A DNA stretch of 64,000 nucleotides from contig CBDCNP010000001.1 in the NCBI GenBank assembly GCA_965219415.1, positions 160,001-224,000 on the forward strand, given 5' to 3'. The DNA comes from Candidatus Marinacidobacterales bacterium (GTDB lineage: Bacteria; Acidobacteriota; Vicinamibacteria; Marinacidobacterales; DATDRI01). Under the pieces are notes generated by a model. That model searched no databases. It was given only the letters and a program-made list of their open reading frames with translations, and was not told the DNA's origin. A program made the position numbers and the translations under genes. This document shows positions 39,450 to 53,419 of the stretch, piece by piece (position 1 is the first letter of the stretch; each line of letters opens with the position of its first letter).

Positions 39450-40853
39450 TCACTTTACGCCTCTTTGCTCTAGTTTACTCGCCTCCCTTTTGATCTCCAG
39501 GTTGAGCTCCAGAACATCCCGCCGGATCTTGTCCACGTCCACGGTTCCTATTACGCGATTTTCCATAATGATGCGTCCGTGAATAACGGTGGTCGTCACG
39601 TTGGCGGCCGACGCCGCGTAAACCAGCGCTGAGTAGACGTCGTACATCGGGATCATGTTGACCGCATCCTTGTCGACGATGATGATGTCGGCGAACTTGC
39701 CGACCTCCAGGGAACCGATCCGGTCTCCCATGTCGAGGGCCTTCGCCCCCCCGATGGTCGCCATTTCGATGACGTCGACCGGCGGCATGACGGTACGGTC
39801 CTGGTTGACCAGCTTGTGTATCTTGGCCACGTAGCCCAACTGGGTAACCATATCGAGCGTGTTGCCGCTCATCGCACCGTCGGTGCCCAAACCGACGTCG
39901 ACTCCCCGTGCGAGCATGGTCAGAACCGGCGCCACGCCTTTCCCCGCCTTGATGTTAGAGACCATATTGTGACTGACGCCGACTCCGCGGCGTTTCAGTA
40001 AGTCGATATCCGACTCGGTGACGAGGATACAGTGGGCGGCCACCAGGCGAGAACTCAGCAGACCCACCGAGTCCAGATACTCCACGGGCGTCTTGCCGAA
40101 ATCGCGGCGGATTTGCTCGATCTCGGCCTTCGTTTCCGAGAGGTGGGTCAGGACCGGCACGTCGAGCTTTTCCGCCCATTCCGCGATCAACGCGAGTTGC
40201 TCCTTCTCAATGGAGTAAGGCGCGTGCGGGGCCAACGCGGGGGTGATGAGCTCGTTCCCTTTGTACTCTTCGATGAATTTGATAGCGTACTCGAGCCCGC
40301 CGTAAGGCTCCTTCGCGTCGGGGGCGGGGTACTTGATCACCGTCTCGCCGGCGATGGCACGCATGCCGACTTCGACCGCGGCGCGCGCTACCTGATCTTC
40401 GAAGTAATACATGTCGGTGAACGTCGTCACCCCGCCTTGCACCATCTCTACCGCGGCGAGGAGAGTCCCGCTATAGACGTTTTCGGGATCGACGACCGTT
40501 CTCTCGAGCGGAAAGATGAAACGCTCAAGGCGATCGGGTACGTCGTCGGCCAATCCGCGGAAGATGGTCATGGGGGCGTGGCTGTGGGTGTTCACCATGC
40601 CGGGCATCACGATGTCCCCGCCGGCGTCGATGACCTTGCCGGCGGTGTAGGTGGCGGCGAGCTCCGCCCCGCCCACCGCGATGATCTTGGAGCCGCGGAT
40701 GACGAGCGTGCCTCGAGGGATCACCGCCTTCTCCTCGTTCATGGTGACGAGGTGGGCGTTCTTTACCAGAATGTCGGCCGATCGTTGTGACTGAGCGGCC
40801 ACGAATTGTGGTGTAGAGACGGCCAGGGTCAGAACCCAACAAAGAATTCTCAA
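39450..40853 (-). CDS. Amidohydrolase, MTA/SAH-deaminase-like, with signal peptide
   Basis: PGMVNTHSH, APHAPY, THLSET, GLGTDG; RBS GAGGAGG. Confidence 0.9.
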   Translation of the reverse strand: MRILCWVLTLAVSTPQFVAAQSQRSADILVKNAHLVTMNEEKAVIPRGTLVIRGSKIIAVGGAELAATYTAGKVIDAGGDIVMPGMVNTHSHAPMTIFRGLADDVPDRLERFIFPLERTVVDPENVYSGTLLAAVEMVQGGVTTFTDMYYFEDQVARAAVEVGMRAIAGETVIKYPAPDAKEPYGGLEYAIKFIEEYKGNELITPALAPHAPYSIEKEQLALIAEWAEKLDVPVLTHLSETKAEIEQIRRDFGKTPVEYLDSVGLLSSRLVAAHCILVTESDIDLLKRRGVGVSHNMVSNIKAGKGVAPVLTMLARGVDVGLGTDGAMSGNTLDMVTQLGYVAKIHKLVNQDRTVMPPVDVIEMATIGGAKALDMGDRIGSLEVGKFADIIIVDKDAVNMIPMYDVYSALVYAASAANVTTTVIHGRIIMENRVIGTVDVDKIRRDVLELNLEIKREASKLEQRGVK

Positions 40854-45446: not shown

Positions 45447-48269
45447 CTATTCTTCAGCCGCCAATTCCAGAAGCCGTGCCCTGGTTTCGGCCGACCAGCC
45501 GGAGTGGGCTTCGATGACGCGGCCCGCCTCGTCGACGAGAAGGGTCAACGGCACGGTGAGTTGCGGCGACGCGTAAACCTTCATGATGTCCTTCTCATCG
45601 AGCAGGACATTCGTATAGCGGATCGAGCGCTCCTCGAGGTAAGAGAGCGCGGTATCCCGCTGCCCGAAATCCAAGCTGATACCGATTAGATCGACGCCGG
45701 CGGCGGAGAGTTTATCTTGAAGCCGCGACAGCTCGGGCATTTCGACGGAGCACGGGACACACCAAGTCGCCCAGAAGTTCACGACGGTCTTTCGCCCTGG
45801 CTTCAAGAGGGAACCGAGCGTGACCGTGGACGGCGACGACGACGATAAACCCGTCAACGAAAGCTCGGGCAGGACCTCGCCTTTTCGAAAGGCGAGACTA
45901 TGGAAAAGTTGTTCCGACGCCGGCTCGGGGTCGGGCAAGCTTCGGAGTCGCTCCGAAACCACCTCGACCGTCCCGGTTCCCTCCACGAGCCGCAGGCTTT
46001 GACCGGCGCGGACATCACGGTACGTCTCCACCAAGCCGGAGGGCCAGGTCACCGCAAGCTCGTAGCTTTCATGCTGGCTCGAGGGAGGGCCGAGCCCGAA
46101 GACCAGCCGTGGATCGCCAGCGGAAACGAATCCGCTACCCCCCGACTTGATCTTGGTTTGGGTTCCTAGTGGCGTCCGCACACGGACCACGGTCCCGAAA
46201 GCATCTCGAGCCGACTTCGTTCCCACTAGACTCACCCGGAGGAAGCCGTTTTCTTGCCCGACGTTGTTCCGATAGAGAAGCCGCCCTTCGTTTTGAACCG
46301 GCACCACCACGACGTCCAGATCTCCGTCGTTGTCGAGGTCCGCGAACGAGCAGCCCCTGCCATCCCCGATGGAGTCCAGACCCGAAACGCCAGAGATCTC
46401 GAGGTAGCTCCCGTCTCCCCGATTCAAATACAAACCGTCGCGCTCGAAACCACTGAATGACAGGCCCTTTTCGAAGAGCTCGGTCATGTGATGGTTCTGG
46501 TAATCAGCATTCCCCGCCTGCTCGACTTTAGCCGCGGCCGCCACCACGTGGCGCCAAAACAGACTTCACGTGTCTTTCATGGTCTTGCCAGACACGAAGC
46601 CGTTGACGGAGAAGGCATCTTCCCAGCCATCGTTGTCCAAATCGAAAAACCCGCCCCCATATGCCCAACCAGCGCCAAACCCTCCGGCACGCTGCGCGAC
46701 GTTCTTGAACGTACCGTCACCTTGATTTTCGAAGAGCGAGTTGCCGGCGGCGAGTTTCTTGAGAACCACTCCATCCGGGGTGGCGTCGGGCATGAGTCTC
46801 TTCAGAATGCGATTGCCCGCAGTCGAGGACATGTTCGTCACGTGGAGGTCCAAGTCACCGTCGTTGTCGTAGTCCCCGAAGGACACACCCATGCCGTTGC
46901 CGGGATCGACTACACCTCTTTGTACGGCCTCGTCGCGGAAGTGGTCGCCGTAGTTCACGTAGAGAGCGTTCTCGCCGAAGTCGTTCGCCACGTACAGATC
47001 CTGGTGCCCGTCGGCGTTCACGTCGGCAAACGCGGCCGCGTAGCCCCATCGCGAATCATCGACCCCCCACTTCGTCCCGTCCTCTCGGAAACGGCCGTTA
47101 CCCTGATTAATGAAAAGAAGATTGGGCGTTCCGTTGCTTGCCCTGCTCCAGGAGTTGGGCATCACCTGGCCGTAGAGATTGTAGGAAGTGACATAAATGT
47201 CTGTCCACCCGTCTCCATTTACATCCGCCGCCACAGCGCTGAAACCTACCGCTCGGTGGTCAACGCCCGCCTCACTGGACACATCCAAGAAGCGAAGCTC
47301 CCCGGTGGGCTGCAACTGGTTTTGAAGCAAGCTCTGTTCTCCGACGGCGGCAAAGAAAATGTCCAGGTCCCCGTCGTTGTCGTAATCGAGGAGGAGCGTT
47401 CCCGTTCCGTCCCGGCTATACCCGACGAGCGTTTCCTCAGAGACATCGCGAAACGGACCCTCCCATTCGTTCAGAAACAATCGATTTCCCAGAACCCCAC
47501 TCGTCACGATGTCGAGCAAACCGTCGTCGTTGACATCGCCCACCGCCGCACCATGAGCCTTGAAGCCGTCGTTGGGAGGCTCGCCGAAGGCAGGCACGCC
47601 CTCCCACAGCCCGGCGGGTCGAGTCACATCAGAAAACAGATCCTCCTCGGACAGCATGCTTTCAAGCGACTCGAACGACCAACTCCGAACGCTCCACAGC
47701 TCTTCGGGCGCTCTGTCTACACGGAGCCGAATCCATCCACGTACCCATTCGCGCCGGCCCTTCCCGTCGCAGCCTACCACAAAGAAGAAGACGCGGCTTT
47801 CGCCGCGAGTCGGCGTACCGCTGTCGAACTCTGCCGCTTTCACTTTGAGGCGGACGTCCTCGATTTCGGTGAAATGAGACAGAAACGCTTCGATACCTCC
47901 AAGGAAGTCGGCGCGGTCGATTATCTTGGGAACCGTGTTGAGATCCCAGCCGTGCCGGCGGATCCACTTGATGTCGTGCTGAACGGCACCCGACCGAGTG
48001 GGGAATAAAGTGGCCTCGAACTCCTCGGGAAAGTATTTTGCGGCCTTCCCGAGGTCTTGTCGGCGAAGTACGACCGACAAATCCAAGAGCTGGTTCGCGA
48101 GCGACTCTGAATCGTCCTCGATCTGCTCGAGCGCGGCGCGATCGAGCTCGAGAGAAGGCCGTTCCTGAGCCCCGACATCGCTGGAACGGAGGCAAACGAG
48201 GAATGCAAGTGCTACCGCCGCCGGAACGGCGACGCGGCCTCTCCCACGGAACGACGCGCTAGCTAACAT
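45447..48269 (-). CDS. Secreted FG-GAP repeat / ASPIC-UnbV / TlpA-like thioredoxin fusion with in-frame UGA (putative selenoprotein, 940 aa)
   Basis: Signal peptide, many DxDxDGxxD repeats, KDT-UGA-SLFWRHVV in frame, GSGFVSAGDPRLVFGLG, VNFWATWCVPC. Confidence 0.85.
46511..46568 (-). promoter_or_regulatory. UGA codon and SECIS-like hairpin
   Basis: UGA AGUCUG UUUUGG CGCCAC-GUG-GUGGCG ... CUAAAG ... CAGGC; apical loop starts with GU, 18 nt after the UGA. Confidence 0.7.
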
Positions 48270-48505: not shown

Positions 48506-49687
48506 TCAAAATTTGTAGTTAAAGTCGAATCGGAATCGGCTTCCATCTTGGATGGTGGTGATGGCATCTACAATGTACAGGCGCGCGAGCAAGAGCATGT
48601 TCTTCACCGGCGCATAGCCGCCGCGGATCTCGTGACCCTGGAAATCACTGGCCGCGGTCTGCGTCTGGTTTCCGAATCGAAGCCAGTCGTCTTCGGCATA
48701 CGAGGCGTGCACGGCAAGAGTCTCTATCCACGCGTAGTAGTAGCCGATCACGAAACCTCCGAGCTTGCTAGGGTTGCCAAACCGGACCGACGCCACCGCC
48801 CCAGTCTTTTGATCATGGTTCGCCGCGGTAAAAGGATCCGGATCATTTGGAGAGTAGCTCTTGAGATTGTACGCTAGGTCGAGCCCCAGCGTCATTGGAA
48901 TCCTAGTTGCGAATTTGGCTTGGATGTCACCCGTCCACAGGTCGTAGTCGCGCGCGCCATTGCCATCGAGCAGGTTTCGGGCGCCCTTCTCACCGAGTAG
49001 AAAAAAAGGCCGGTCGCGAAGTTGAAGTTGGCACTGTTGCACTTCCTGCCGTAAACGACCTGTCCCGCTACCATGTTCCCTACGAAATGATCCATGCCGT
49101 CGGCGTTGAAGTAGAAACCGCCAATCAGCGAGAGTCGAGCGTTTTCAGGCTTGAAGTCATGCCGGCCGGTGAACCCAGCCACCGTGACGTCGTCGTCCCA
49201 GAAGAGCTCGTTCTGTTTCCAAAACGGCTAGCTATTTCGGCCCAACCAGGCCGAGCTCCGCTCGCCCTTGATCTGAAAGTAGTACTTGTCGAGGAGCAAG
49301 TCTCTCGGCCCTTTCGGGCTGCCTTCGAAATCGTTGGATGGTGATATGGGGAGACTGCTGAATTTCCCAGGCGCCCGTTCGGAACCGCACTCCAAAGGAG
49401 AACAAGGGAGCCGGTCGGTAGTCGAAGCCGATGCGAGCCCGAATCCGGAGACGCTGGCGATCCGCTCTCTCAACCCCACTCACGCGTTCGGAATCGAAAT
49501 CGTCCTCGAACCGAAAACGAAAATCTCCATAGAGGCCGATCTTGCCGGCTTCATCCAGCTTGATCTCGGCGAGAGCCGGGCCGGGCATGAACAGAAAAAG
49601 GAGGCCCGCCGAGAACCATGTCCAGAACATGATTCGCCAGGCGAGGAAAATTTCAGACCCTCTTGTCTTCCCTGCAGTCTCCCCCAC
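48506..49687 (-). pseudogene. Putative outer-membrane porin with frameshifts and an in-frame TAG
   Basis: Signal peptide, LYGDFRFRFE..DRQRLRIRARIG, ELFWDDD, terminal RFRFDFNYKF; TAG at 49228 in RNS*PFWKQ. Confidence 0.8.
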
Positions 49688-50035: not shown

Positions 50036-53000
50036 ATGTCTCACGTTCGGGAGGTGCCCCTGATGTTACCCAATCGTTCGAGCCGTATCGCCCTCTGGGC
50101 TGGTCTTTTCCTTAGCTTGGCGCTCATTCCACCGGGCCTGGCGCAGGAAACGCCAGAGGAAGAGCCAAAGGAAGAAGACAAGGGCCTACCCCTCGAGCCG
50201 ACCCGTAAAATCGAGTTCGTCACCGACGAGGCCACTTGGCTGTCTCTCGACGTCTCGCCGGACGGCCAGACGATCCTCCTCGAACTGGTCGGTGATCTCT
50301 ACACGTTGCCGATCGAGGGTGGAGAGGCGATCCCCATTTCCACCGGTCTCGCCTTCGATAGCCAGCCAAAATACTCTCCCGCAGGTGACCGTATCGCGTT
50401 CGTAAGCGATCGCGACGGGGCCGAAAACGTTTGGACCGCTCGCGCCGACGGCAGCGAGCCCAAGAAGCTCAGCCAGGACACGCGCGCCGACTTCGCCTCT
50501 CCGACCTGGACGCCCGACGGCGAATGGGTCGTGGCCTCCCGCTCGTCCTGGGGCCTCGGAACGTTCGAGATCTGGATGTACCACGTCGACGGAGGGGCCG
50601 GCGTGCAAATCACCAAGGCCAAGCCGAAGCCCGAGACGCCACGCAATCAACGACACAATGCCATCGGTGTGGTGGTGTCTCCAGACGGGCAACATTTCTA
50701 CTACGCGCGAAAGATGGGCGGCTTTCAATACAACGCCAACTTCCCACTCTGGCAGATCGCGCGCCGAGACCAGGTGACGGGCGACGAAGACATACTGACG
50801 CAGTCTCAAGGTAGTGCCATCCGCCCGCTCTTGTCTCCAGACGGAACCAAGCTGGTTTATGGCACGCGTTTCGATGCCGAGACCGGTCTACGCCTCCGGA
50901 ATCTGACGACGGGCGAGGACCGGTGGCTCATCCATCCTGTGCAAAGAGACGACCAGGAGTCCCGGTTCACGCGCGACCTGCTTCCTGGATACGCCTTCAC
51001 TCCCGATGGAAGCGAGATCATCGTGACCATCGGCGGCAAGATCCACCGCGTGAATGTCGAGAGCGGTAACTCACGCGTCATTCCATTCAGCGCCACGGTG
51101 TCTCAGGAGCTCGGGCCGAGACTTCATTTTCCACGCCGCGTCGAGGAAGGGCCGGTGCGTGCCCGTATCATCCAAGACCCCGCAACCTCGCCGGATGGGG
51201 AGCGGGTCGCGTTTTCGGCGCTCACCCGGATCTACGTCATGGAGCTCCCGGACGGCTCTCCACGCCAGCTCCTTCCCGGTGAAGCTCGAGGCTTCCAGCC
51301 CGCTTGGTCGCCGGACGGCCAGTGGCTCGTGTACGTGACCTGGTCCGGCGAACGCGGTGAGGGAGGGCAGATTTGGAAAGTGCGAGCCGACGGAACCGGC
51401 AACCAGCGACTTACGACCGTCCCGGCTTTCTACAGCGATCCGGTTTGGGCCCCGGATGGCTCGCGAATCGTTGCGCTTCGGAGCACGCTTCACGAGCGGC
51501 TCACAAGCCCCGTCGATTTTGGGCAAGTCACGGGATTGGACGTCATCTGGATCCCGTCTGGCGGCGGCGATGCGAACCTCGTCATTCCCGCGCGGGGACT
51601 CGGCAAGCCTCACTTCACCGGCGACCCGGAGCGGATCTTCCTGTACTTTGCCAGCACTTTCGGAATGAACCCAAAACATGGTCTCGTTTCGCTCCGATTC
51701 GACGGCACCGATCGACGAGAGCACCTTCAACTGACTGGCCCGGGTCCTTACTTTGCCGAGGAGCCGGTGGGCGCAGACGACATGCGTGTCAGCCCGGACG
51801 GGCGTTGGGCTCTGGCGCGCGTCGGCAACCAACTCTATCTCGTAGCGGTGCCGCCGGTGGGCGGCGCTGCTCCGAAAGTCAACATCGAAAAACCCGCCGT
51901 TCCGCTCAAGAAACTCACCAACATGGGCGCGGATTACTTCGGCTGGTCCGACGACGGGAAGACCATCGCCTGGGCGATCGGATCCACCTTGTTTCGCCGC
52001 GCCCTCGACAGTGTCGTCTTCGATCCTCCCAAGCCTCCCAAGAAAGAAGAGGAAGACTCGGAGGACAAGGCCGACGAGGAGGAAGAGGACGACACACCGC
52101 TGGAGGAGGAAAGTGAAGTCGTCGACCGGATCGACATCGTCATCGAACGGCCTCGACACGCCCCTAAGGGGACCGCGGTGTTACGCGGCGGCACCGTCGT
52201 CACAATGAAAGGTGACGAAGTGATCGCCGATGCCGACATCGTGGTCCGCGACAATCGCATCGTCGCCGTCGGCGCGCGCGGCGAGGTGGACGTCCCCGCG
52301 GATGCCAACACCATCGACGTTAGTGGTACGACCATCGTTCCGGGGTTCATCGACACGCATGCCCATTGGTTCGAGATACGCCGCGGCGTGCTGGACGTCA
52401 TGAACTACAGTTTCTTGGCTAATCTCGCCTATGGCGTGACCGCCGGCCTCGATGTCCAAACGAGCTCGAACGATATGTTCGCTTATCAGGATCTCGTGGA
52501 CATCGGAGAGGGCAAGGGCCCCCGTGCCTATTCGACCGGCCCGGGAATCTTCTCCAATAACGCCTTCAAGAACGTGAAGGAGGCCAAAGGGGTCATCTCT
52601 CGCTACAAGAATCACTACCGCACGAGGAACCTCAAGTCCTACGTCGTGGGCAATCGGAAGCAGAGGCAGTTGATGGTACAGGCCGCCCACCAGCTTCAGA
52701 TGATGCCGACAACGGAAGGTGGACTCGATCTAAAGCTCGACCTCACTCACGTCCTAGACGGTTTTTCCGGCAACGAGCACAGCTTGCCCATTGTGCCGCT
52801 GTACAAAGATGTCGTGGAGCTCGTCGCGCGTTCGGGGATCGGCTATACACCGACTCTTCTCGTGGCATACGGCGGCCCGTGGGCGGAGAACGACTTCTAC
52901 ACGGCAACTGAGGTGCATGATGATGCGAAGCTGCGCCGCTTCCTACCGCACAACATCGTGGACGCCAAGAGCCAAAGGCGCCCGTGGTTTCGCCGCGATG

Positions 53001-53419
53001 AGCACGTTTATCCCAAGATCGCGGCGGCAGCGGCCGAGATCATACGGGCGGGCGGCTACGTCGGTATTGGAAGCCATGGCCAGCTCCAGGGCCTGGGCTA
53101 CCACTGGGAGATGTGGGCGCTGGCGAGCGGTGGCTTGAAACCGATGGAGGTGCTCCGCGCCGCGACGCTCCACGGTGCCCAGATCATCGGCCTCGCGGAG
53201 GACTTGGGAAGCATCGAGCCGGGCAAGATGGCCGACCTGGTGGTGCTGAACAAGAATCCTCTCGAGGAGATTCGGAACACGAACAGCGTGCGGTATGTCA
53301 TGAAGAACGGCGAGTTGTTTGATGGCGACACTCTTCATCAGATCTGGCCGAAGGAAGAAAAGCTCGAACCAATGTGGTGGTGGGATGCCGAACCAGTAAC
53401 GGAGAGTGGAGGGTTTTGA
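50036..53419 (+). CDS. Secreted amidohydrolase with TolB/PD40 beta-propeller repeats
   Basis: WLSLDVSPDG, repeated PxWSPDG, PGFIDTHAH, GSHGQLQGLGYHWE, GSIEPGKMADL. Confidence 0.95.
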   Translation: MSHVREVPLMLPNRSSRIALWAGLFLSLALIPPGLAQETPEEEPKEEDKGLPLEPTRKIEFVTDEATWLSLDVSPDGQTILLELVGDLYTLPIEGGEAIPISTGLAFDSQPKYSPAGDRIAFVSDRDGAENVWTARADGSEPKKLSQDTRADFASPTWTPDGEWVVASRSSWGLGTFEIWMYHVDGGAGVQITKAKPKPETPRNQRHNAIGVVVSPDGQHFYYARKMGGFQYNANFPLWQIARRDQVTGDEDILTQSQGSAIRPLLSPDGTKLVYGTRFDAETGLRLRNLTTGEDRWLIHPVQRDDQESRFTRDLLPGYAFTPDGSEIIVTIGGKIHRVNVESGNSRVIPFSATVSQELGPRLHFPRRVEEGPVRARIIQDPATSPDGERVAFSALTRIYVMELPDGSPRQLLPGEARGFQPAWSPDGQWLVYVTWSGERGEGGQIWKVRADGTGNQRLTTVPAFYSDPVWAPDGSRIVALRSTLHERLTSPVDFGQVTGLDVIWIPSGGGDANLVIPARGLGKPHFTGDPERIFLYFASTFGMNPKHGLVSLRFDGTDRREHLQLTGPGPYFAEEPVGADDMRVSPDGRWALARVGNQLYLVAVPPVGGAAPKVNIEKPAVPLKKLTNMGADYFGWSDDGKTIAWAIGSTLFRRALDSVVFDPPKPPKKEEEDSEDKADEEEEDDTPLEEESEVVDRIDIVIERPRHAPKGTAVLRGGTVVTMKGDEVIADADIVVRDNRIVAVGARGEVDVPADANTIDVSGTTIVPGFIDTHAHWFEIRRGVLDVMNYSFLANLAYGVTAGLDVQTSSNDMFAYQDLVDIGEGKGPRAYSTGPGIFSNNAFKNVKEAKGVISRYKNHYRTRNLKSYVVGNRKQRQLMVQAAHQLQMMPTTEGGLDLKLDLTHVLDGFSGNEHSLPIVPLYKDVVELVARSGIGYTPTLLVAYGGPWAENDFYTATEVHDDAKLRRFLPHNIVDAKSQRRPWFRRDEHVYPKIAAAAAEIIRAGGYVGIGSHGQLQGLGYHWEMWALASGGLKPMEVLRAATLHGAQIIGLAEDLGSIEPGKMADLVVLNKNPLEEIRNTNSVRYVMKNGELFDGDTLHQIWPKEEKLEPMWWWDAEPVTESGGF

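Follow-up and report, generated by a model that had tools for sequence, protein, structure and literature searches.

In Neisseria PilB, a thioredoxin-like domain is fused to MsrA and MsrB and recycles the catalytic cysteine (Cys)/selenocysteine (Sec) domain, and Sec/Cys peroxidases of the GPx/Prx type are comparable. A 2026 review, self-described as the most comprehensive inventory, lists 119 prokaryotic selenoprotein families and subfamilies, and the bacterial Sec insertion sequence (bSECIS) model specifies an apical loop of 3-9 nt, a stem of 4-16 bp, a G in the first two loop positions, a spacing of 16-37 nt from the UGA and an MFE (minimum free energy) of at most -7.5 kcal/mol (PMC13188914). 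We analysed a 64,000-nt stretch of DNA (hereafter the window, to which coordinates refer unless a genome and contig are named) from a Candidatus Marinacidobacterales bacterium (GCA_965219415.1, contig CBDCNP010000001.1, positions 160,001 to 224,000), which carries on its minus strand (45447..48269) a gene interrupted by a single in-frame TGA. Our best overall explanation, which we regard as likely, is that the two open reading frames (ORFs) on either side of this TGA form a single gene, that its product is an exported selenoprotein of 940 residues, and that the TlpA-like domain of this product recycles the Sec. The narrower statement that the 940-residue product is a genuine selenoprotein is, from the sequence comparisons below, very probable. 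Selenium use in this FG-GAP/UnbV_ASPIC protein family is most likely uncatalogued and shared by relatives in several bacterial phyla.

The upstream ORF (48269..46566, 567 aa) ends in ATG AAA GAC ACG TGA and shares its frame with the downstream ORF (46547..45447), the sole separator being the TGA at 46568-46566. This arrangement, proposed in an earlier sequence-only reading of the window, is confirmed by the ORF list and by the read-through translation: with TGA read as U, the frame gives 940 residues with one recoded codon (U568) and is otherwise intact over 2.8 kb, as that reading had stated. FG-GAP repeats were also read there on both sides of the TGA, and Pfam matches above cut-offs bear this out (i.e. 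FG-GAP_3, PF13517, 132 bits, in five stretches; and FG-GAP, PF01839, 59 bits). Because these domains lie on both sides, the TGA interrupts a continuing domain series.

We then compared the site among homologs, using the read-through protein (P0001) as a query against 401 genomes of the phylum. The tallies of this search and of the SelA search below include three unpublished genomes (G049, G152 and G024), and no site-level claim uses them. Matches at E <= 1e-30 were found in 130 genomes. Of the 47 strongest matches, 45, spread over 44 genomes, read as a single frame interrupted by exactly one TGA (44-57% identity over residues ~8-937). The other two are a fragment at a contig end, which breaks off ahead of the site, and a gene with Ser at the site and no thioredoxin domain. 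In pairwise local alignments, the TGA occupies the same column in all 30 ortholog loci fetched, in the context D-T-U-S-x-F-W-R-H/Q-V-V, and in 18 of 20 distant paralog loci (31-38% identity; fetched for their '1 TGA' flag), one of which lies in this genome. The stop at this column, which is shared by 48 of the 50 loci so flagged and fetched, is always TGA and never TAA or TAG, and both halves of the gene are clearly conserved at the protein level. This recurrence exceeds chance and agrees with what the sequence-only reading had anticipated of homologs.

A contig scan with one genome per species returned 80 loci, nine of them with TGA at the site. Their labels are Pyrinomonadaceae (one), Phycisphaerae, Planctomycetota, Roseibacillus (two), Akkermansiaceae (two), Verrucomicrobiales and Dehalococcoidia. 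We take Pyrinomonadaceae to belong to Acidobacteriota, and the other labels are likewise presumed to fall in their customary phyla. Among the 120 protein-database matches listed, 89 are <=640 aa, and all 89 end in ...DT, i.e. at the Sec codon. The claim that standard pipelines split the gene therefore holds for every one of these short homologs, which are systematically mis-annotated as 'VCBS/FG-GAP repeat protein' or 'hypothetical protein'. Logan contigs from four runs of four studies cover 46566-46568 with the same letters throughout, although two of these runs are possibly those from which the window itself was assembled; among the runs listed, none from RNA contains the stretch. The TGA at 46566-46568 is neither a sequencing error nor the mark of a pseudogene. 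Such an origin, which would be compatible with the metagenome-type assembly (8.45% contamination) and with an upstream porin-like gene that looks broken over three frames, is already refuted by the agreement of the Logan contigs, by the same TGA in 48 other loci and by conservation of both halves.

A second Sec-type CRTAC1-like gene was observed in the same genome (L050; G000:C3:4031740-4034376, minus strand, ~4.03 Mb). It shares 34% identity with the window gene over a frame of ~1230 aa, and has a TGA at the homologous column (KDL-U-SFFWRQVVS), a hairpin CGGCA-GGUCG-UGUCG and a thioredoxin domain with a WCPPC motif.

The codons that follow the TGA are those of a conserved peptide. Nearly all of 46 distinct TGA sequences encode S-x-F-W-R directly after the TGA with synonymous codon variation: Ser is AGC in 32, AGT in six and TCG in one; Phe is TTC in 36 and TTT in five; and Arg is CGC in 28, CGG in seven, CGT in five, CGA in two and AGG in two. 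The earliest possible start codon is a conserved Val codon, seven to eight codons past the TGA, in 40 of the 46 sequences, and three of the 46 have no ATG, GTG or TTG in the first 13 codons after the UGA. This pattern argues that the stretch after the UGA is translated.

The hairpin CGCCAC-GUG-GUGGCG stands directly after the W-R codons. It confirms the apical stem-loop that the sequence-only reading had described, with a loop starting with GU, 18 nt from the UGA. A 27-nt segment with this core hairpin has an MFE of -12.5 kcal/mol, and the core hairpin satisfies all four bSECIS constraints (i.e. loop and stem size, G position, spacing and MFE), in line with the original suggestion of a bSECIS-type element 3' of the UGA. 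Across relatives, the loop is 3-5 nt long and starts with G[G/U], and the stem has 5-6 bp. All four core pairs form in 37 of the 46 TGA sequences compared with three of 20 non-TGA homologs that share W-R-Q-V-V; the remaining nine TGA sequences also fold hairpins, with the register shifted and frequently a loop of the GGUC type. Pair 27-37 (alignment A2, 42 sequences; base pairs counted on a structure specified by hand and not on an RNAalifold consensus) covaries: CG 23, GU 4, UA 4, GC 3, AU 1 and other 7. Its covariation score was reached by none of 500 shuffles. This pair joins the third position of the Arg codon to the first base of the codon four codons later, so a synonymous site covaries with a site that changes the amino acid (Ala/Thr/Ser/Pro), a pattern that protein constraint alone can hardly account for. 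An Rfam scan of 46350-46700 gave nothing relevant, with one chance-level match (E 9.9).

The Sec machinery sought in this genome, i.e. selA, selB, selD and tRNA-Sec, is present in full. SelA matches with 476 bits (570 bits with TIGR00474), SelB with 376 bits at a distance of 34 kb on the gene's own contig, and SelD with 328 bits and one in-frame TGA; the tRNA-Sec has the anticodon tca. SelA was also found in 40 of the 44 genomes that carry a TGA ortholog, and the four without a SelA match (completeness 69, 95, 96 and 99%) all carry a tRNA-Sec (68-76 bits). In two genomes, selA lies downstream of the ortholog on the same strand, at 467 bp (0.5 kb) in G021:C1:1153758-1158321 (L046) and at 3.7 kb in G175:C9:30879-38751.

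Two side observations concern this machinery. Three genomes of 95-99% completeness (G230, G318 and G081) combine a TGA ortholog and a tRNA-Sec of 71-76 bits with no SelA match above the family cut-off; the missing SelA is either an assembly gap or something unusual. The selD gene of the window's genome (L012; G000:C3:3889655-3890587) has its in-frame TGA in the context TCAG-U-ASKLS, and because of this TGA its product appears to be a selenoprotein too.

We then focused on the relationship between the Sec site and the C-terminal thioredoxin domain across 68 loci. Sec occurs together with an intact W-C-x-P/A-C motif in 45 loci, and CxxC is thus kept in all 45 Sec forms that have the domain; in many orthologs this pair provides the only Cys residues of the whole protein. 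Three further Sec loci lack the thioredoxin domain and have a U-x-C motif instead, the protein ending after UnbV_ASPIC. Among the 20 non-Sec loci, 12 have the domain with the first Cys replaced (SxxC, AxxC, AxxS, DxxS or VxxS), seven lack the domain and one has an intact CxxC, so that 19 of the 20 are without CxxC. In a FastTree tree of 64 sequences (MAFFT FFT-NS-2 alignment, midpoint-rooted; six rows dropped, i.e. four near-duplicates and two loci with a non-homologous site), Sec forms stand on all deep branches and non-Sec forms are nested at >=4 places. These patterns indicate that the predicted Sec evolves together with a thiol partner (CxxC or U-x-C). Of the three database homologs with Cys at the site, two (P0005 and P0050) have the same full architecture including the CxxC thioredoxin domain.

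A subgroup of loci without the thioredoxin domain (L060, L062, L065 and L099) has the context PDG-U-x-C-[VL]-W, with Cys two residues after Sec; one member is labelled Dehalococcoidia. No thioredoxin-like neighbour gene was found beside the three U-x-C loci.

Domain matches and the predicted structure place the protein in the CRTAC1 / ASPIC-UnbV family. The protein has the propeller followed by the UnbV_ASPIC domain that define membership, and NCBI names related full-length proteins 'CRTAC1 family protein'. An AlphaFold2 model from a 47-row alignment (pLDDT 90.6, pTM 0.89) consists of a disordered N-terminus with a hydrophobic helix, an alpha+beta domain (residues 44-207), the beta-propeller, UnbV_ASPIC and a domain with the thioredoxin fold. 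Its best solved fold match is murine CRTAC1 (9etn_A, E 1.6e-28, TM 0.73 by target, 21% identity). The Sec had been thought to sit in a propeller loop; it does lie within the propeller, but in the model U568 opens helix 568-579, one of two helices inserted between strands 551-556 and 612-616. The proposed NTF2-like N-terminal domain is similarly backed by the pattern of secondary structure in the model, but Pfam gives no match for it on this protein; for homologs of this part, one source gives 'ketosteroid isomerase-like', and one homolog carries PF13577.

The C-terminal domain was read from the outset as a TlpA-like domain with WCVPC, and this is borne out by Redoxin and AhpC-TSA matches above cut-offs, by the motif itself and by fold matches to ResA, TlpA and DsbE structures. 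All NCBIfam matches to this domain are below cut-offs (TlpA 64 vs 230 bits, ResA 52 vs 170 and DsbE 45 vs 123), and from these scores it is of the TlpA/ResA/DsbE type and not a member of those equivalogs. The protein is probably exported, because it combines a signal-like N-terminus with a TlpA-type domain. TlpA-type domains work in the periplasm. A lipoprotein reading of Cys26 was considered and rejected, FLVC not being a canonical lipobox.

A mechanism can be proposed as follows: (i) the hairpin 18 nt past the UGA would recruit SelB and Sec-tRNA(Sec) during translation and so place Sec at 568; (ii) Sec568, at the N-terminus of a helix that forms an insert between the last blades of the propeller, would be the redox-active residue, oxidized by a substrate (e.g. 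a peroxide, sulfoxide or disulfide); (iii) the oxidized Sec568 would form a selenenylsulfide with Cys837 of WCVPC, or with the +2 Cys in the U-x-C relatives; (iv) Cys840 would resolve the selenenylsulfide; and (v) the CxxC would be re-reduced from the cytoplasm via a membrane protein of the CcdA/DsbD type. A DsbD_TM-family gene is present in the genome. Such a Sec-CxxC relay is moderately likely; its export, selenenylsulfide step, electron source and substrate class are our inferences, and peroxides, sulfoxides and disulfides may be taken as the obvious candidates, with little weight on any particular one. In brief, the conserved TGA, hairpin covariation, Sec machinery and Sec/CxxC association uphold the core of the sequence-only reading (i.e. 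one Sec protein with a 3' SECIS and a fused TlpA-like CxxC domain), with export and recycling as its conjectural parts.

Several observations weigh against this explanation. The main oddity is the residue at the Sec column in forms without TGA: the 20 non-TGA genome loci have S (three), E (four), L (one), D (two), Q (one), A (two), N (four) and G (three), and never Cys, and the 29 alignable full-length database homologs have R (ten), S (eight), C (three), E (two), A (two), I (two), V (one) and L (one). Such a scarcity of Cys is atypical for a catalytic Sec. TGA/Cys pairs had been expected at the site; the TGA is indeed recurrent and three of the 29 database homologs have Cys, but the genome loci have none, the column being mostly S, R, N, E, G, A or D. 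Locus L070 (E) and three database proteins, P0002 (V), P0004 (L) and P0016 (A), also keep CxxC without Sec or Cys at the site. The 12 non-Sec loci whose motif is degenerate form one clade, and because non-Sec forms cluster in the tree, the Sec/CxxC association rests on ~4 independent losses and not on 20. TGA and non-TGA loci were chosen by the '1 TGA' flag of the phylum search and sampled by similarity to P0001. SelA is common in the phylum (301 of 401 genomes), and its co-occurrence with the gene therefore discriminates weakly. RNAalifold found no consensus structure over all 42 aligned sequences. Finally, the hairpin first described was longer and included the lower stems GUCUG/CAGGC and UUUUGG/CUAAAG. 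This 71-nt composite has -21.9 kcal/mol and z = 0.37, with 126 of 200 shuffles as stable, and orthologs do not conserve what lies 3' of the apical stem; given its ordinary stability and unconserved lower stems, we rejected the long hairpin as a special element and kept only the apical hairpin of 5-6 bp.

The alternative that survives best accepts a genuine selenoprotein and, in place of a catalytic redox cycle, assigns to Sec568 and the CxxC the binding of metals or metalloids (Cu, Hg, As or Se itself), so that the protein would serve in the periplasm as a chaperone, sensor or scavenger. Domains of the TlpA type act on copper proteins, one of the fold matches is the TlpA-ScoI complex (4txo), and one Sec and two Cys as the only thiol-type residues would suit a three-ligand site. 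In addition, many catalogued prokaryotic selenoproteins are metal-related (Table 1, PMC13188914). We consider metal binding unlikely, however, since the U-x-C relatives keep Sec without the thioredoxin domain, the WCxPC motif is that of reductant-type TlpA/ResA, and no recurring metal-handling genes occur among the scanned neighbours.

Far less probable is a programmed read-through of the UGA without Sec, in which a near-cognate tRNA would insert Trp, Cys or Arg with stimulation by the hairpin, as a regulatory gate on full-length synthesis. The great variability of the column in non-TGA homologs means that residue identity might not matter, and the hairpin is short; yet this hairpin fits the bSECIS spacing and the G[G/U] loop start, SelA or tRNA-Sec occurs in all 44 ortholog-carrying genomes, and Sec tracks an intact CxxC or U-x-C partner that a mere gate would not need. 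We know of no established case of conserved non-Sec UGA read-through of this kind in bacteria.

That the TGA is a true stop, with the 567-aa product and a second polypeptide re-initiated at GTG 46547 forming a split propeller, is more improbable still. Gene callers do yield both ORFs, and a GTG, ATG or TTG lies at the right distance past the TGA in the 40 sequences mentioned above. However, the 6-7 codons ahead of GTG 46547 encode the conserved S-x-F-W-R, and this GTG is itself the conserved Val codon and part of the hairpin loop or stem. The three sequences without an early start codon, the restriction of the stop to TGA in 48 loci, the lack of a signal peptide on a downstream piece with a periplasm-type TlpA domain, and the single chains of the non-TGA homologs also speak against re-initiation.

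Returning to a selenoprotein with a Sec-CxxC relay, we tentatively suggest a broader reading, to which we give somewhat less than even weight. The gene may be the founding example of an ancient and widespread class of selenoenzymes that work outside the cytoplasm and have a CRTAC1-type propeller as their scaffold, in which Sec did not replace a catalytic Cys but occupies a site that can otherwise vary, immediately ahead of S-F-F-W-R-Q-V-V, the motif best conserved in the family. Sec and its dedicated CxxC or U-x-C would then be ancestral in the sampled subfamily and would have been lost together several times. If so, the many Sec-less bacterial CRTAC1-like proteins would be redox-dead derivatives, and a major use of selenium would have gone uncounted in soil Acidobacteriota and in marine Verrucomicrobiota and Planctomycetota. 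The alignment of Sec mostly with non-Cys residues makes this a clear case that bears on the origin of Sec sites. Also, because homologs are cut at the Sec codon, selenoproteome counts for Acidobacteriota, a dominant soil phylum, would be too low.

Features of the read-through gene, with window coordinates and the basis of each assignment
Feature	Position	Strand	Basis
Whole read-through gene	45447..48269	minus	940 codons + TAG stop, one in-frame TGA; in orthologs the frame is open over residues 8-937 apart from exactly 1 TGA
Signal-peptide-like segment, residues 1-34 (RGRGR, hydrophobic stretch, VGA/QE cut)	48168..48269	minus	Read from translation; low pLDDT 1-36, helix 15-28
NTF2-like alpha+beta domain, residues ~44-207	47649..48140	minus	Model helices 44-69, 73-79 and 119-130, followed by four long strands (135-207)
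FG-GAP beta-propeller, residues ~212-670, with two-helix insert 568-600 starting at Sec	46260..47636	minus	Pfam and model, pLDDT mostly >90
TGA, predicted Sec codon U568	46566..46568	minus	Context KDT-U-SLFWRHVV; column conserved in orthologs/paralogs; Logan contigs agree
Predicted SECIS core hairpin CGCCAC-GUG-GUGGCG	46539..46553	minus	6-bp stem, 3-nt loop GUG at 46547-46545, 18 nt after UGA; bSECIS constraints and covariation
UnbV_ASPIC domain, residues 690-759	45993..46202	minus	PF07593, 49.4 bits vs cut-off 23.4
TlpA/ResA-like thioredoxin-fold domain, residues 797-925	45495..45881	minus	Redoxin 51.9 bits and AhpC-TSA 50 bits, above cut-offs; fold matches
CVPC redox motif (C837, C840) in WATWCVPC	45750..45761	minus	CxxC in 45/45 Sec forms with the domain

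The neighbourhood of the gene is heterogeneous. Five of the 15 neighbouring ORFs scanned in the window have a Pfam match at E<=0.001, none of them redox- or selenium-related. The flanks of 29 ortholog loci, where the scan covered 49 of the 225 ORFs, namely those of >=300 aa, contain DUF1800/DUF1501 (four times), radical SAM (three times) and SelA (once), and no conserved operon was found in the window or in these scanned flanks. Directly upstream on the minus strand (48506-49687) lies a Porin_5-like outer-membrane gene with a signal peptide at its start and a C-terminal ...FNYKF; it appears to be spread over three frames (49687-49232, 49182-48892 and 49042-48506) and may be frameshifted or contain assembly errors. 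On the plus strand, 50036-53419 encodes a large exported protein (1127 aa) that joins PD40/WD40-like beta-propeller repeats to an amidohydrolase domain, and a second amidohydrolase gene lies at 39450-40853.

Finally, we compared the gene with known systems. Table 1 and the text of the 119-family catalogue, whose supplementary tables are outside this statement, contain no family with an FG-GAP, UnbV_ASPIC or CRTAC1 domain (PMC13188914), in accordance with the first impression that this is not a characterized selenoprotein family. The main texts of deep-Sep, BSepDB, the GOS survey and the 2016 ISME survey, whose supplements could still list the family, do not mention FG-GAP, ASPIC, VCBS or propeller; CRTAC is also unmentioned in the deep-Sep and BSepDB main texts, and integrin in those of the GOS and 2016 ISME surveys. 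Full-text literature searches gave no paper linking selenocysteine with the CRTAC1/ASPIC-UnbV family, and none of the NCBIfam selenoprotein models reaches its cut-off on this protein. Because no listed family matches its domains, we regard it as a new selenoprotein family of a kind already known, i.e. SelB/SECIS-decoded bacterial selenoproteins, on a known protein fold. If confirmed, it would bring to the catalogue both a selenoprotein family with a beta-propeller fold and a new architecture, with Sec in one domain and the recycling CxxC in a fused thioredoxin domain. It would also offer a first testable chemical hypothesis for the poorly understood bacterial CRTAC1/ASPIC-UnbV family.

Catalogued TlpA/Redoxin-type selenoproteins have Sec inside the thioredoxin motif (UxxC, UGC; Table 1, PMC13188914), whereas here the motif is all-Cys (WCVPC) and the predicted Sec stands in another fold, 269 residues upstream; the C-terminal domain gives a weak match to the NCBIfam model WAxxUGC (38 bits vs a cut-off of 300). 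The exported thiol/selenol redox chemistry would be the same, with export and chemistry both conjectural for this protein. With CRTAC1 / ASPIC-UnbV proteins (e.g. murine CRTAC1, PDB 9etn), it shares the propeller + PF07593 architecture, to which it adds an NTF2-like domain at the N-terminus, a TlpA-like domain at the C-terminus and, where the helix insert ahead of the last blade begins, a predicted Sec. The hairpin resembles bacterial SECIS elements (the consensus and E. coli fdhF) in being a stem-loop in the coding region 3' of the UGA, with a small G[G/U] loop and a similar spacing and MFE. It differs in being very short (5-6 bp with a 3-5 nt loop) and in lying inside the conserved codons W-R-H/Q-V-V-A; many relatives of the gene carry a GGUC(G) loop, and the SelB site is a prediction. 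With respect to PilB and GPx/Prx, the predicted catalytic domain here, a beta-propeller, does not resemble Msr, GPx or Prx, and its activity is likewise a prediction, but the proposed logic is the same: a catalytic chalcogen at the N-terminus of a helix, a Cys for resolution and, dedicated to the pair, a reductant of thioredoxin fold that would be fed by DsbD/CcdA.

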